From IMG/VR virus record IMGVR_UViG_2671180854_000004: a stretch of 5,686 nt of DNA. One strand, given 5' to 3'. Below are positions 1 through 5,686 of this stretch, piece after piece. How positions within the stretch are numbered: position 1 is the stretch's first letter; every line of letters begins with the position of its first letter. A model generated the notes under the pieces. That model was not told the origin of the DNA, did not search any database, and saw nothing but the letters and a program-made list of their open reading frames with translations. A program made the position numbers and the translations under genes. Source of the stretch: a virus (lineage: Duplodnaviria; Heunggongvirae; Uroviricota; Caudoviricetes).

Positions 1-7
1 GTCTGAC

Positions 8-34
8 AGGTGCCGGATTTCATATCCGGCACTT
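8..34. terminator. Stem-loop just past the end of the gpA reading frames; possible transcription terminator (direction ambiguous)
   Basis: Perfect inverted repeat TGCCGGAT (11-18) / ATCCGGCA (24-31) with 5-nt loop TTCAT, extendable to 8-34 with one G-T wobble. The plus strand has a moderately T-rich tail (33-50); the minus strand lacks a U-tract. It sits about 20 nt past the stop at 55-57. Confidence 0.35.
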
Positions 35-54
35 ACTTTCCTTAACTCTTCGCC

Positions 55-351
55 TTAACGCAAAATCTCACACTGATGATCCTGAATTTCCTCGGCTGAA
101 GCACGGTTAAGCGTCAGTAGATTTCGTTGTGTCGCCAGCAATACAAATGAGTTATCACTCTGCCGTACCATCGCCAGCCCGTAGCGTCCCATATGTTCCC
201 GCGCCTCAGGTACTTCTTCTGCCAGCATCATAAATGGGCTGCGTTGTACCAGTTCGCTTTCCGTTACCCGACGCGCCAGGTAACGAAGCATCACTGCTGG
301 CAGGCTTTCCACAGTTATTGACAGGACTCCGAGGCGCGGCGATGCCGCTTT
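55..351 (-). CDS. Open frame in +1 register relative to gpA; probably the frameshifted true C-terminal segment of gpA, alternatively a separate small overlapping ORF
   Basis: This frame is open from 351 down to the TAA at 57-55 (annotated ORF 55..312 starts at GTG). Its translation has ordinary protein-like composition, whereas the gpA-frame tail over the same DNA is Ser/Gly/Pro/Ala/Thr-rich. It switches register exactly at the T5/A5 run at 349-353. Confidence 0.35.
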
Positions 352-2230
352 TTAAAGTCAAAGGCTCAACGACCGGAACTTTCGGCACAATGCGCCAGTC
401 CGTCGTTCTGGTGATATGAATATGGCGCGCGCCGAGATGCGGCGCGTAAATGCCGACCACTCTCTCGACCTCTTCCTCGTACTCGTTAACGTCATCCGAC
501 GGGCTACGGGCGACCCTGACAGTCTGACAATCGCGCGGGACATTTGCCCCACCCTGCGCGCTGATATACAGCGCAAAATCGCCACTGTCTGCGGCAGCGC
601 GTGCAGCCTCGACGCGTTCGTCAAACTCATCAGCAATGCTGACGCCGCGAGGCAATTTGCGTAGTTCACGGTAAGCCCCCATTGTCGGCAGACCAACCGT
701 TTTAAATTGCGGGATGCGCCACGTTGACGCCCATGCAGTAACAGCCGCGGCAGTATCTTTCAGAGGTCTGCCGGTATCGTTATCGAGCTGACCATCCAGT
801 GCATAGCCGTCGATATTTTTTGAAATGTATTTCGCGATATACCCCGCAGCACCGCCCCGGTTAAGGTGTTTCGCCTGAAAACGGTTTCGCTCGGCTCCTC
901 TTTCGTCGCCATCCTCTTTGAGCGCGTAGCGACGCATGGTTTCGATAATCTGGTTACGCTGACGTGGATTACAAAAAAGCATCATATGCCAGTGCGGCGT
1001 TCCGTCGTGGTGTGGCTCGACGACACGCAAACCGTAGACCTGTAAATCATTATCCTTGAATGCCGTGCGCATCAGGCTCCAGATGCGGCAGAGATAACGC
1101 TGCGCATCCTTTGGATTAAATGCCTCATCGTTCCAGCCGTGATTTAGCTGGACGGTTTTACTTTCGCCTTTTCCGACCTGACGTGTCGGGTGATACTTTG
1201 ACGGCGCGGTCAGCGTGATAAACATCCCCACATCACCCTCTGCGGCGGCGTAACGCTCAATACCGGCAATGGTGTTCATCAGCTCCATCCGGCGAATTTC
1301 AGGATTAGAAATACTTCCCATCACCTTACTGATAAGGTCGATGCGCTCGCCGGTTTCCCTGTTTTCAAGGTCACACGATTTAAGAAATTCCAGATTTGCC
1401 TGGCGGCGCGCACGCACATCACGAATGGCATGTTTACTGGCATAAGGAGAACGGTCTTTATTCACCTCCCCGACAGCAATCAGTAACGCCTCATGCCAGC
1501 GCATACGCTGACCTTTAAGCTGATGAGTCCACCACTCATCGTTAAACAGACGGGCAATGGCAGAATATGCCTGCCTCGTGGTCATCTGTCCTTTACGGTA
1601 TTTTTTCCAGTAGAGAGGGGAAATATTGAAAGCTCGTGCAGCGCCAGCAACATGACCATACAGATGCGCCTGAGCCTCATCCGTAAACAGCGATTCTTTC
1701 TCGCCATGTGCATCAACCCATGCATCGCAGAGTTCCTCATACATCATGAAAAGCTGCGATGAGATACGGGCGGCAAACTTTTTCAGTTCCTTGTCATTCA
1801 TCCCCGGCAGACGCGCATAATGGTCACGCTCTGCCAGAAACAGCAACGACGCGTCGGTGTTCATTTCATGGCGCTGATTCACGCGCTCAATGCGCGGCCA
1901 TAAACGACGCTGAAAAGTGGATGTGAGGAAATAAAACCCGTGCACCGGGCTTTTATTGCGCCGGATGTAGTCATAGCGTGAAGTAAACAGCGAGCGCAAA
2001 AAGTAAGGCAGGCGGTTAATCGTGGATAAAACACCTTGCACCTGACGCATCTCGTCACGTGTAAGGGGTCTTTCGCGCCCGACAGCCTCGCGTGGCGCGT
2101 TCCATGCATAAGCACCGGTAAACGCCTTACCGGTGCCTGCGGCAAATGCTGATGGAGGGACAAAACGCCCGGAGGCTTTAACGGCCATATGAGCCAAAAG
2201 CCTCTGAACAACGCTTGCTGAGTTGCTCAA
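206..2230 (-). CDS. A: Replication initiation protein, P2 gpA-type rolling-circle (HUH) endonuclease; the current reading frame ends in a probable out-of-frame tail
   Basis: 674-aa ORF. HUH-like motif HWHMM is encoded at 986-994 and the dual-tyrosine motif YIAKYISK at 818-841 (checked codon by codon); this matches the phiX174 A / P2 gpA active-site pattern. The ORF-track start at 2230 is TTG; a more likely start is ATG at 2188-2186 (residue 15, MAVKASG...), with GAGG about 12 nt upstream. Confidence 0.8.
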
Positions 2231-3263: not shown

Positions 3264-3764
3264 TTAATGCAGATATTGCTCTGGTTTTACCGACGTCAGA
3301 ATTGTCGGTGCATACTCAAACAGACTGAATAATTCACGTAATGCACGGAATAAAGCATCACGCCAGTAACATGATTCTTCATTAATTCGCCAGTATGGCT
3401 GGTTGAATTCTTTTTCAGTCAATCCGGCATGCATAAATAAAGTACGACGCTGACTGACTGTTAAAAAACTAATATATGCATACTCACTTGCGCCAACCTG
3501 ACGGCGTTTTGAGAATGCCCCACGCAATTCATCAATTGCACAAACCAGCCGTTCACGTTCGACGTCGTTCATTTCTTCAAAACGCATCGTTGCGTGACGC
3601 TGTTTTAACTGCGCATGGAAGCAAACCGTTAGCCGTTCGCGTTCCATCATCTGATTATAATAATCACATGTATCCTGCCAGCGAGGGACGGCAAGATGCT
3701 TGCCAATTATCCGGCGCATAGCTGCTGGCTGTTTTTCAACGAGATTGAGCGTCATCACTGTCAT
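3264..3764 (-). CDS. Early replication-associated protein, 166 aa; assigned as P2 gpB-like by position and size only
   Basis: ORF with a strong GGAGGG Shine-Dalgarno 7 nt upstream of the ATG at 3764-3762; its start overlaps the upstream stop (ATGA). It lies between the cox-like gene and the small-ORF cluster, as B does in P2. The 5' half is about 50% GC and the 3' half about 37% GC. Homology was not verified. Confidence 0.5.
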   Translation of the reverse strand: MTVMTLNLVEKQPAAMRRIIGKHLAVPRWQDTCDYYNQMMERERLTVCFHAQLKQRHATMRFEEMNDVERERLVCAIDELRGAFSKRRQVGASEYAYISFLTVSQRRTLFMHAGLTEKEFNQPYWRINEESCYWRDALFRALRELFSLFEYAPTILTSVKPEQYLH

Positions 3765-3931
3765 TTCCAGACCCTCCGGCTTTTCAGAAAGGTCAGAGCC
3801 TTTTTTAACGGACTCTGTTTTTTGGTACGGATAATGATTCCCTTGCGTCCCTTCCCGTGGGTGATGGTGAAGTCAATCGCCCTGGGGCTTTCGTTACGCA
3901 ATAACTGAGCAATACAACGCGGCTCATTCAT
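3761..3931 (-). CDS. Small basic hypothetical protein (about 56 aa from the ATG at 3931; 65 aa if started at 3958)
   Basis: Lys/Arg-rich ORF. The longer version would overlap the cox-like 3' end by 25 nt; the ATG at 3931-3929 begins 2 nt after the cox-like stop (TGAttATG). Its stop overlaps the B-like start (ATGA). Occupies the position of P2 orf78. Confidence 0.4.
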   Translation of the reverse strand: MNEPRCIAQLLRNESPRAIDFTITHGKGRKGIIIRTKKQSPLKKALTFLKSRRVWK

Positions 3932-3933
3932 AA

Positions 3934-4206
3934 TCACAACCCCATCCACAAAAGCCATGCATCACGCTGTTCAACCGGTCGGTTATAAAACGCCTCACGT
4001 ACAGCGCGATTAAACTCAGGAATGAAAACCCATTTTTCACCGGCACGAGCCTTCGGTTTGCAAGGATCACGCAATTCAATAATTGGTAATTTATTTGCCT
4101 TCACCATTTCACTGACGGCTGTCTTTGGCTTCCCTAATAAATCAGCAAATTTATCCACATGAACCGCATCAAGCGGATACTGAATCACATAATTTTCAGC
4201 GTCCAT
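3934..4206 (-). CDS. cox: Cox/Apl-like excisionase and early-promoter regulator (about 90 aa)
   Basis: First gene of the minus-strand operon, divergent in position from the repressor gene. The ATG at 4206-4204 has a GAGGG Shine-Dalgarno 8 nt upstream; the ORF-track start at 4221 lacks a good one. Size and C-terminal region (RDAWLLWMGL) fit the Cox/Apl family; this is a recollection, not an alignment. Confidence 0.6.
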   Translation of the reverse strand: MDAENYVIQYPLDAVHVDKFADLLGKPKTAVSEMVKANKLPIIELRDPCKPKARAGEKWVFIPEFNRAVREAFYNRPVEQRDAWLLWMGL

Positions 4207-4282
4207 ATATGGTACCCTCATAGGATCCAGCCCTTTCTAAACCACTCAAAACCGTTTAGACGCTGGTTTATTCTCAAATCAA

Positions 4283-4302
4283 TGGAACCTATATAGGTTC
4301 CA
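4283..4302. promoter_or_regulatory. Perfect 20-bp palindrome TGGAACCTATATAGGTTCCA; candidate operator
   Basis: Verified base by base as perfectly self-complementary. Lies just downstream of the predicted minus-strand early transcript start, over a TATATA element. Confidence 0.55.
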
Positions 4303-4319
4303 GTTTTGAGGGAATTTAG

Positions 4320-4335
4320 TCCCTATATAGGCACC
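4320..4335. promoter_or_regulatory. Second, imperfect copy of the operator motif (TCCCTATATAGGCACC)
   Basis: Shares the 10-bp palindromic core CCTATATAGG, and 9 of 11 positions of the right half, with the 4283-4302 palindrome. Centres are 34 bp apart. It falls inside the spacer of the candidate minus-strand promoter. Confidence 0.45.
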
Positions 4336-4342
4336 ATGTCAA

Positions 4343-4636
4343 ATGAAATTAAGCGAAAAGATTAAGGCCTTGCGTGAGGCTGAAGGGCTAAGCCAATCAA
4401 AATTCTGTGAAATCATAGAGTTACCGCTAAGCACACTTAAAAAATATGAAGGAGGAAACTTTGAACCCGGTGGCACAGCTTTGCTAAAAATCACTATGCA
4501 TCCCACATTCCAAAAATATGCTCTATGGCTTATGACAGATAAAACCGCGCCGGACGCAGGACAAATCGCACCGGCTCTCGCGCACATTGGGCCAGAGTCA
4601 ACAGAGTCCAACCACTCCGCGAAAAGGATTGGCTAA
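4343..4636 (+). CDS. C: Immunity repressor, P2 C-like HTH (XRE-type) protein, 97 aa
   Basis: N-terminal helix-turn-helix-like segment (LSQSKFCEIIELPLSTLKKYE). Sits immediately upstream of, and co-directional with, the integrase and divergent from cox, as in P2. Size is close to P2 C (99 aa, from memory). Shine-Dalgarno is weak. Confidence 0.7.
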   Translation: MKLSEKIKALREAEGLSQSKFCEIIELPLSTLKKYEGGNFEPGGTALLKITMHPTFQKYALWLMTDKTAPDAGQIAPALAHIGPESTESNHSAKRIG

Positions 4637-4705
4637 CTCTATATAAAGATTACATTTTCACCATTTGCTACCAAGATGGTGAATACAGCGCCGGAGGGCT
4701 TTCTT

Positions 4706-5686
4706 ATGGCAATTAAGAAGCTCGATGATGGTCGCTATGAAGTGGACATTAGACCTCGCGGTCGCGACGGAAAACGCATCCGCAGGAAATTCGAAAGAAA
4801 AGCTGAAGCACTAGCATTTGAGCGATACACAATCGCCAATGCCAGTCAGAAAGAATGGGGAGGCCAGCGAGCAGACCGCCGGACTTTGAGTGAGTTGCTG
4901 GACATCTGGTGGAAATATCACGGGCAAAACCACGAGCATGGAACAAAAGAGTTTAATCATCTACTCAAAACCATCAGCGGCATAGGTGATATACCAGTGA
5001 GCAGGATGAGCAAAAGGGCTTTGATGGATTATCGTTCCATGCGACTACGTGATGGTATCAGTGCCGCAACGATAAACCGTGACATGTACCGATTATCCGG
5101 CATGTTCACAAAATTAATTCAATTGGATGAATTTTCCGGGCAACACCCAATTCACGGACTGCCGCCACTGGCGGAGGCCAACCCTGAAATGACGTTCCTG
5201 GAAAAAGCAGAAATCGAAAAACTGTTAAATGTTTTGGCTGGTGATGACTTACTTGTCGCGCTTTTATGTCTGAGCACTGGAGGAAGATGGACGGAAGTTG
5301 CCACGCTAAAACCAGCACAGATTACAAATTGCAGGGTTACCTTCCTGAAAACCAAAAACGGTAAAAAGCGAACCGTGCCGATTTCTGAGGAACTGGAGAA
5401 AAAAGTTAAAGAGGAGGCCAGCGCCAAATTATTCAAAGTTGATTATGAGAAATTTTGCGGGATTTTACGCAGAGTGAAACCTGATATACCACCCAATCAG
5501 GCAACCCACATCCTGCGGCATACATTCGCAAGCCATTTCATGATGAATGGGGGCAATATAATCGCACTGCAACAGATTCTGGGACATGCGAGCATTCAGC
5601 AGACGATGGCCTATGCGCACCTTGCGCCTGACTATCTGCAAAATGCCGTCGCTCTGAATCCACTAAAAGGCGGAGTGACGTTATAA
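4706..5686 (+). CDS. int: Tyrosine site-specific integrase (P2 Int-like), 326 aa
   Basis: ORF-track start at 4676, but the ATG at 4706 has a GGAGGG Shine-Dalgarno 7 nt upstream. Tyrosine-recombinase signatures in the translation: TGGRWTE (box I Arg), HILRHTFASHF (HxxR), LGHASIQQTMAYAHLAPDY (C-terminal catalytic Tyr region). The stop TAA is at 5684-5686, the window edge. Confidence 0.9.
   Translation: MAIKKLDDGRYEVDIRPRGRDGKRIRRKFERKAEALAFERYTIANASQKEWGGQRADRRTLSELLDIWWKYHGQNHEHGTKEFNHLLKTISGIGDIPVSRMSKRALMDYRSMRLRDGISAATINRDMYRLSGMFTKLIQLDEFSGQHPIHGLPPLAEANPEMTFLEKAEIEKLLNVLAGDDLLVALLCLSTGGRWTEVATLKPAQITNCRVTFLKTKNGKKRTVPISEELEKKVKEEASAKLFKVDYEKFCGILRRVKPDIPPNQATHILRHTFASHFMMNGGNIIALQQILGHASIQQTMAYAHLAPDYLQNAVALNPLKGGVTL

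Follow-up and report, generated by a model that had tools for sequence, protein, structure and literature searches.

Two related palindromic sites between the genes C and cox of a P2-like prophage are very probably operators of its 97-aa C repressor, because the cores of the sites are uniform in the prophages inspected, both sites are substituted in the lytic phages L-413C and R18C, and palindromes co-vary in relatives. The window (the whole stretch of 5,686 nucleotides analysed here) comprises the int-C-cox-B-A early-control region of a P2-like phage, in the orientation opposite to that of the P2 map, as judged from the list of open reading frames and from Pfam matches (Table 1). The dyad symmetry of each operator unit and an account of L-413C and R18C by operator mutation are possibly new points: no description of dyad-symmetric units in the P2-C family was found in a literature search whose reach excluded Karlsson et al. 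2006 and Garcia et al. 2008.

The switch region

The genes C and int are read from the plus strand, and cox, followed by orf78, B and A, from the minus strand, an order that fits a P2-type C switch. [quoted passage not shown] Over 3900-4700, the window is 100% identical to KC618326 (a record named "Escherichia phage P2") and 99-100% identical to P24B2, vB_YpM_50, R18C, P2_AC1, FSL SP-004 and L-413C; identity of the window to Yersinia phage L-413C is 99.5%. The phage of record KC618326 was induced from an O157:H43 strain, and its immunity region differs from that of P2.

Table 1. Features of the early-control region, with positions in the window
Feature	Position	Strand	Description
A	206-2230	minus	From the ORF list and Pfam
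orf83-80 block			Between A and B in gene order; from the ORF list and Pfam
B	3264-3764	minus	From the ORF list and Pfam
orf78			Between B and cox in gene order
cox	3934-4206	minus	90 aa from second ATG; Pfam Phage_Cox, E = 1e-23; 273-nt CDS in RefSeq
C-cox spacer			136 bp; separates cox from C
Putative Pc extended -10	4210-4218	plus	TGGTACCCT; placed by alignment to WPhi
Extended imperfect inverted repeat around the distal operator	4270-4315	none	Hairpin possible in both convergent leaders
Site 1, putative distal operator (O2-equivalent)	4283-4302	none	TGGAACCTATATAGGTTCCA, perfect 20-bp palindrome; about +6 to +25 of the predicted Pe transcript
Pe -10	4313-4318	minus	TAAATT; 18-nt spacer from the -35; aligns with annotated WPhi TATATT
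Site 2, putative proximal operator (O1-equivalent)	4317-4336	none	TAGTCCCTATATAGGCACCA, imperfect palindrome, in the Pe spacer
Pe -35	4337-4342	minus	TTGACA; adjoins the C start codon; aligns with the annotated WPhi and P2 Pe -35
C, immunity repressor gene	4343-4636	plus	97 aa, P2-C family; from the ORF list and Pfam HTH_3
int	4676-5686	plus	Tyrosine integrase; Pfam Phage_integrase and Int_N; exits the window end

The core of site 1, CCTATATAGG, is repeated at 4322-4331 within site 2, whose 20-mer has 8/10 self-complementary pairs and is identical to site 1 at 15/20 positions. With dyad centres at 4292.5 and 4326.5, the sites are 34 bp apart, about three helical turns, and bracket the Pe -10. 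The preliminary description of this DNA had reported that site 1 is perfectly self-complementary with a copy of its core 34 bp away, that both sites fall within the cox/C switch region, and that the second occupies the spacer of the early promoter; these points are borne out by the sequence, by the gene map, and by the promoter scan in agreement with the WPhi alignment, respectively. Since the unit CCTATATAGG reads the same on both strands, the pair counts as a direct and as an inverted repeat at once, and the choice posed earlier between direct repeats (as for P2 C) and inverted repeats (as for 186 CI) is a false one here: what is present is the direct repetition of a dyad-symmetric unit. One P2-type trait, two repeated units flanking the Pe -10 at two to three turns, is thereby present around a predicted promoter, and another, operator units that are non-palindromic direct repeats, is absent (10/10 pairs in the distal unit, 8/10 in the proximal). 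On sequence comparison, the real departure from WPhi and P2 is the internal dyad symmetry of each unit.

Perfect palindromes of at least 20 bp occurred in 18/2000 Markov-1 random windows of 5.7 kb. Of 2000 shuffles of the 78-bp switch region, two gave a distal palindrome score of 9/10 and none a score of 10/10; in 3 there was a second site that matched the first at 15/20 positions or more. The pairing of site 1 with site 2 is not a product of chance. It is scarcely credible that the palindromes are functionless accidents of an AT-rich promoter region, a reading for which one might point to the five 10-bp palindromes of the window, one of them the unrelated-looking CCATATATGG at 4203-4212, and against which stand the shuffles, the cores free of substitution in the inspected E. 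coli prophages (420 genomes) and in 34 IMG/VR contigs that are not R18C-like, and the independent palindromes at the same position in other genera. As a candidate third operator, CCATATATGG was rejected: it differs at two core positions, it is not conserved in relatives, and 10-bp palindromes are as numerous in the window as just stated. Related sites in the window number two only.

A consensus scan of 4100-4450 returned a sole sigma-70-like promoter, Pe, on the minus strand. In alignment it matches the annotated WPhi Pe (TTGACA, 17 nt, TATATT) base for base, and its transcripts would start near 4307. From the positions of TTGACA and TAAATT it follows that site 2 fills the Pe spacer. The scan of the same interval missed Pc; the pattern TGnTAnnCT of its putative extended -10 is kept across heteroimmune relatives and falls within the annotated WPhi Pc promoter. 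Transcripts from Pc would cross both operators into C, and if TGGTACCCT belongs to Pc, the Pe and Pc leaders would share about 80 bp, with site 1 inside the overlap.

Repressor and immunity type

The C protein matches the P2 C structures 2XCJ/2L49 with E = 1.9e-21 over residues 3-97 (phmmer) and has one domain, which scores above the cut-off for Pfam HTH_3; GQIAPALAH is invariant in C alignment A1, and the trait of a P2-C-type repressor of about 100 aa with an N-terminal HTH is present. Identity is 55.7% with WPhi C and 43% with P2 C, and the recognition-helix region of the protein reads LSTLKKYEGGN vs LGTVKNYESGH in WPhi C. Its identity to L-413C gpC is 100%, and the same protein is found in the other close phages. 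A protein-cluster look-up for C yielded generic names only.

Membership of one immunity class is taken to mean C proteins at least 95% identical and the same C-cox spacer (PMC3448106). By this measure the window belongs with L-413C, from which its spacer differs at three positions. Judged from these comparisons, the immunity type differs from those of P2 and WPhi, yet is known already as the L-413C type. The proposal of a separate immunity group thus stands in part: the difference from P2 is upheld, C being 43% identical where at least 95% is seen within groups, and the group itself is not new, because L-413C has the same C and spacer and the region is found in 7.7% of E. coli genomes. The switch, the protein and the immunity type are ordinary, with many database copies, and very common.

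The same cannot be said of the suggested P2/186 hybrid, which found no footing. That the switch is a recombinant of 186-type inverted-repeat operators with a P2-type repressor, forming a new immunity group, is extremely unlikely. The resemblance is real in that 186 CI, also an immunity repressor of a P2-related phage, recognises inverted repeats, and the window units are inverted repeats; however, 186 CI is a protein of 196 aa with two domains that forms a wheel of dimers, and the window repressor is a single-domain protein of 97 aa, a full-length homologue of P2 C and WPhi C that aligns end to end with P2 C. The genes on either side are cox (Phage_Cox) and a P2-type int, without cII, the intergenic region can be aligned to its counterparts in WPhi and P37, the layout of two sites 34 bp apart is of WPhi type, and the same switch is present in L-413C and in hundreds of genomes. 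186 CI acts at three pR sites and at distant sites, and 186 has a cII-dependent establishment promoter that is absent from the window; a two-domain CI of about 190 aa with a C-terminal oligomerisation domain, apl, cII, and multiple pR inverted repeats with distant sites are likewise absent.

Natural and lytic variants

The comparison of operators across P2-like prophages that the preliminary description had proposed was run, and it yielded conserved cores as well as co-varying palindromes in relatives. The region is present in 420/5,426 complete E. coli genomes (7.7%), as a single chromosomal copy in every case. The site 1 30-mer (4278-4307) is exact in 415/420 prophages, and four of the five variants carry 4303 G>T, one base beyond the palindrome. 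The site 2 30-mer (4315-4344) is exact in 407/420, with the variants 4336 A>G (three genomes), 4335 C>T and 4332 C>T. About 100 genomes differ in the 76-bp query, and 4/4 sampled were changed at 4312-4314, between the sites. All natural variants inspected (4283, 4303, 4332, 4335, 4336 and 4312-4314) lie outside the 10-bp cores; the inspection covered all but one of the site 1 variant genomes and all but about eight of the site 2 variant genomes. The 4332 C>T change shifts site 2 toward the sequence of site 1. Among 35 IMG/VR contigs, 33 are identical over 4271-4345, one has 4283 T>C in the outermost base, and the sole contig with core changes is R18C-like and bears the two substitutions of R18C.

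An alignment over 3900-4700 comprised nine phages with the window immunity region, in eight of which C is identical; in HQ103 it is frameshifted by a 7-bp deletion within the gene. Both sites are intact in 6/9, and the remaining two phages are L-413C and R18C, those described as non-temperate. L-413C arose from the temperate phage L-413 as a clear-plaque or lytic mutant, and the "wild type" for its comparison is the population consensus (the parent is unsequenced). Its site 1 has the change 4285 G>T and its site 2 the change 4331 G>T, and the C protein is unchanged; further differences are 4314 A>G in the Pe -10, a change also present in a natural prophage, and P51L in Cox. R18C, which has been called virulent without a reported lysogeny test and in a paper that does not discuss the cause of virulence, differs from the window over 970 bp (3902-4871) at two positions only, 4297 G>A and 4323 C>A, so that each 10-bp core holds one of them, and its C gene is intact. 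Were two substitutions to fall at random in 970 bp, one would land in each core with a chance of 2 x (10/970)^2, or about 2e-4. R18C 4297 and L-413C 4331 fall on one and the same motif position, five bases to the right of the dyad.

In P2, repression survives a mutation in one half-site and is relieved when both are mutated (PMC1904268); one substitution per unit in the lytic phages is therefore as P2-family biology predicts. Operator mutations in both copies may explain the escape of L-413C and R18C from repression. Virulent P2 mutants studied by Ljungquist, Kockum and Bertani in 1984 are said to map to the operator repeats, and by analogy the changes in L-413C and R18C look like P2 vir operator mutants. 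No statement on the operator substitutions of these two phages was found in the literature searched, from which Garcia et al. 2008 was out of reach. The account offers a testable genetic explanation for the plague-diagnostic L-413C and the Citrobacter/Shigella phage R18C, both in practical use, and it bears on the safety of "virulent" P2-like phages in diagnostics and therapy; L-413C and R18C would be immunity-insensitive, yet they still encode a repressor and an integrase. Its main audience is P2 specialists and the users of L-413C and R18C.

Whether the sites serve the repressor or Cox had been left as alternatives. Conservation and the lytic mutations point very probably to the repressor, and Cox gained no support. 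Binding of Cox (lytic repressor and excisionase) in place of C is highly unlikely: Cox does act in the same intergenic region, and at high concentration in P2 it represses Pe too, but Cox-type targets are about six 9-bp boxes, 10-11 bp apart and spanning at least 70 bp, not two dyads 34 bp apart. A search of 4190-4345 for cox boxes TTAAA(G/C)NC(A/C) with at most 2 mismatches found 5 vs 4.6 expected, with a P2 consensus that may not suit a divergent Cox, and by the same P2 consensus no phased array of cox boxes lies over the palindromes. A clear-plaque phage, moreover, would not arise from lost Cox binding at Pe.

Operators of related phages

Scanning a single genome for each species gave 80 loci with C homologues, which were scored for 20-bp dyads in the 100 bp upstream of the C start, and the best second site was then sought. 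C proteins with a helix of the S[TS]x[KR]KY[ED] type are accompanied by distal palindromes of 7-10 of 10 pairs at the same position. The palindrome-bearing loci are from Kosakonia, Enterobacter, Hafnia, Brenneria, Serratia, Trabulsiella, Pseudomonas, Ferrimonas and others. A window-like helix region, defined as S/N-T/S-x-K/R-K-Y-E/D, is shared by a group of 17 loci, of which 9/17 have a distal score of at least 9/10 (shuffle rate 2/2000) and most have a related second site in the Pe spacer (Table 2). In this group the site sequences vary between phages and agree inside each phage, the pattern expected of co-evolution between repressor and operator. Most WPhi-like (GT[LV]KNYE) and P2-like (YSSLxxYE) loci have distal scores of 5-7 of 10, close to the shuffle mean of 5.6, and a few WPhi-like loci score higher at the distal position (e.g. 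L033, 9/10).

Table 2. Distal and proximal sites at selected loci
Locus	Organism	Distal site	Proximal site	Pairs
L037	Enterobacter hormaechei	TGGAACCTATATGGGTTCCA	AAGACCCTATATAGGTTCCA	
L048	Trabulsiella	AGGTTCCTTATAAGGAACCG	TAGATCCTGATAAGGAACCT	
L032	Serratia	GGTATCCATATGTGGATACC	TATATCCAGATATGGAACTC	
L025	Brenneria	TTGTTCCTATATGAGAACAA	TAATTCCTAAATAGGAACAA	
L067	Pseudomonas soli	ATGTTCCTTGCGAGGAACAT	TTGTTCCGTGCAAGGAACAA	9/10 each
L090	Ferrimonas	TGGTTCGCTGCAACGAACCA	TAGTTCGTCGTGACGAACCA	

In WPhi-like relatives, a co-varying inverted repeat CnnAAAGG-N14-CCTTTnnG brackets the non-palindromic distal operator, with 84% of cells paired, 14 cells changed on both sides, and a score that 0/500 shuffles reach. 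Such a structure would be in keeping with a palindrome whose main role is at the RNA level, as a hairpin that stands at the Pe transcript's 5' end and also lies within the Pc leader, for mRNA stability, attenuation or modulation of the convergent-transcript overlap, repressor binding being secondary or elsewhere. In the Pe leader of the window an 8-bp hairpin is predicted at +6 to +25 (-11.3 kcal/mol, z = -3.25), the plus-strand leader forms an extended stem (-18.4 kcal/mol), a terminator scan flagged the site 1 hairpin on the minus strand, and the site 1 mutations of L-413C and R18C both weaken the stem. With the R18C change at 4297, however, a G-U pair remains in the stem of the Pe leader (-8.7 kcal/mol), the T-run in the tail TTGATTTGAG is poor for a terminator, and Rfam gave no match, its best hit being to a miRNA-family (E = 0.49, far below the gathering score). 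A hairpin also leaves unexplained the second copy in the non-transcribed Pe spacer and the site 2 substitutions of both lytic phages, which fall at motif-equivalent positions, and as the main function of the palindrome we consider it unlikely. Some additional function of the hairpin, compatible with the operator role, is possible, though we regard it with doubt.

Proposed mechanism and precedents

For the sites as C operators, the reading preferred here, binding, stoichiometry, cooperativity, promoter starts and autoregulation would, as we infer them, combine as follows. One C dimer would occupy each dyad unit of about 20 bp, with recognition helices in successive major grooves over the GGAACC/GGTTCC arms, the monomers on equivalent arms, and the TATATA centre acting as a bendable spacer. 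Two dimers 34 bp apart would bind together, probably with cooperativity, across the Pe -10 (about -29 to +25) and would exclude RNA polymerase; cox, B and A would remain silent, lysogeny would be kept and immunity conferred. The shut-off of Pe would also lift convergent transcription into Pc, and C at site 1, some 60-80 nt downstream of the predicted Pc start, could limit C synthesis at high concentration by acting as a roadblock. Autoregulation of P2 C has been published, and both of these Pc effects would fit it.

The P2-type C operators consist of two direct repeats ("half-sites"), which are 8 bp long at 22-bp spacing in P2, 8 bp at 26-bp spacing in P2 Hy dis, and 10 bp at 34-bp spacing in WPhi; for P2 and WPhi the repeats lie on either side of the Pe -10, and by 2007 operators had been located for these three phages only (PMC1904268). 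No binding experiment for L-413C-type immunity was found in the literature searched. WPhi (Liu and Haggard-Ljungquist 1999; PMC1904263, PMC1904268) has the closest characterised repressor and, like the window, two 10-bp units 34 bp apart centre to centre around the Pe -10, in the same register relative to TTGACA and the C ATG, with TTGACA abutting the C start and with convergent Pe and Pc that have long overlapping leaders. Its unit GTCACCAATA was confirmed at L002 407 and 441, 34 bp apart. The WPhi units are non-palindromic direct repeats, whereas the window unit is a palindrome, and only the WPhi O1 lies within a weak 16-bp dyad (6/8 pairs, counted by eye).

P2 C (2XCJ; PMC2995052) is of the same family and fold as the window C; it forms symmetric dimers, each proposed to bind one unit. 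The P2 units are 8 bp long, 22 bp apart and explicitly non-palindromic (PMC2995052), because of which one monomer of each P2 C dimer must touch unrelated DNA; in the window, unlike P2, the two monomers could contact the DNA in equivalent ways. Since the crystal structure was solved, it has been a structural puzzle how the symmetric P2 C dimer recognises a direct repeat that lacks symmetry, and no complex of a P2-type repressor with DNA was found reported in the literature searched. The perfect 20-bp palindromic unit of a common relative offers a substrate for co-crystallisation, which would define the bases contacted per monomer.

By analogy, the closest precedent for the mechanism is C.Esp1396I, a small HTH dimer of P2 C-like structure that binds directly repeated palindromes, one dimer per repeat and a tetramer on the DNA, which is the arrangement proposed for the window. 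Its units are 15 bp apart rather than 34, and it controls restriction-modification, not phage immunity. The 434 and P22 c2 repressors also resemble the proposal, being HTH dimers on dyad operators of 14-18 bp in which the outer bases are contacted and the centre is uncontacted and deformable; P22 c2 on its palindrome superimposes on P2 C, whose recognition helices have the same spacing of 26 Angstroms, a fit for two successive major grooves. The lambdoid repressors differ from the window C in their separate C-terminal domain and in sharing three adjacent operators with Cro; the window has two sites at a distance of three turns, and its Cox system is separate.

A broader generalisation, put forward with considerable reserve, is that the C sub-clade with the STxKKY helix (from E. 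coli to Pseudomonas and Ferrimonas) would bind true palindromes, with one symmetric dimer per unit, direct-repeat binding being a derived special case, and that the distal palindrome would double as a hairpin in both leaders, tuning Pe and Pc at the RNA level. The closest relative with a different operator, a Kosakonia locus (L023; C 82% identical, same helix), has two clearly direct 16-bp repeats, in which the right half TATAGGTTCCA is kept and the left half partly. These repeats are 18/20 identical in direct orientation vs 13/20 inverted, so their symmetry is partial; full symmetry is therefore not obligatory in the clade, and its operator units form a continuum from half to fully symmetric.

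Variation in the switch region and in lytic relatives

Of the 420 E. coli genomes bearing a prophage with this region, ~100 do not match the 76-bp switch query exactly. Four of these ~100 variants were sampled (loci L016-L019), and in all four the changes fall at 4312-4314; three carry A>G at 4313, which alters the final T of the -10 element of Pe, the predicted minus-strand early promoter (TAAATT to TAAATC). A weaker early promoter would be expected from this change on the basis of sequence, and so carriers of 4313 A>G may be attenuated or domesticated prophages.

Yersinia phage HQ103 (L015) has the same immunity type as the window and contains a 7-bp deletion within C, the immunity repressor gene, at window 4499-4505, resulting in a truncated repressor; both putative C operators are intact. 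Judged from sequence, truncation of C in HQ103 is a separate path to a lytic phenotype. Compared with the window and the rest of its phage class, L-413C (L001/L105) has a P51L substitution in Cox (window 4055), which might confound the interpretation of the L-413C phenotype.

Operator orientation and repeats

The pair of operator units is inverted, not direct, in several relatives, including P37 (L003; GTCATTAA vs TTAATGAC), two Photorhabdus loci (L027 and L028), and a Serratia locus (L043) in which GTCTGT-N5-GGAACC units lie on opposite strands, so unit-to-unit orientation, as read from these loci, is variable within the family.

The distal C operator of WPhi-like phages is bracketed by an inverted repeat, CnnAAAGG-N14-CCTTTnnG, located just 3' of the Pe start. 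The alignment of this site (A3) comprises WPhi (L002 393-430), P37 (L003 531-568), and 15 genomic loci; 84% of its cells are paired, 14 cells have changes on both sides, and the score was attained by 0 of 500 shuffles. The repeat could either fold as a hairpin at the 5' end of the early transcript or be an extended dyad in the DNA, and no description of it was found in the literature searched.

Two further repeats are listed in the table. GATCCAGCC, which flanks the nested repeat, is kept in WPhi, P37, and Kosakonia and Klebsiella relatives, and the nested repeat may be the site at which Cox acts or may form RNA structure in the leaders. The third palindrome departs from the operator core at two symmetrically placed bases, and relatives do not conserve it; it is thus probably due to chance.

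Further features of the window
Feature	Position	Remarks
Window start	1-500	gene A 3' end and beyond
Third 10-bp palindrome, CCATATATGG	4203-4212	covers cox start codon (4204-4206) and TG of putative extended -10 of Pc, the putative promoter reading into C
Nested inverted repeat, CCAGC..CTAAAC..GTTTAG..GCTGG	4227-4266	in stretch common to both leaders (Pe, Pc)

Mosaicism and nomenclature

Approximately 140 of the ~245 substitutions relative to both R18C and L-413C fall in window 1-500, and the remainder of the window is 98-99% identical to these two lytic relatives. This distribution places a mosaic boundary, by sequence comparison, close to the end of A.

KC618326 (NC_041848; from O157:H43 strain T22) is titled "Escherichia phage P2", a name that misleads immunity typing because its immunity region is L-413C-type and unlike that of canonical P2 (AF063097).
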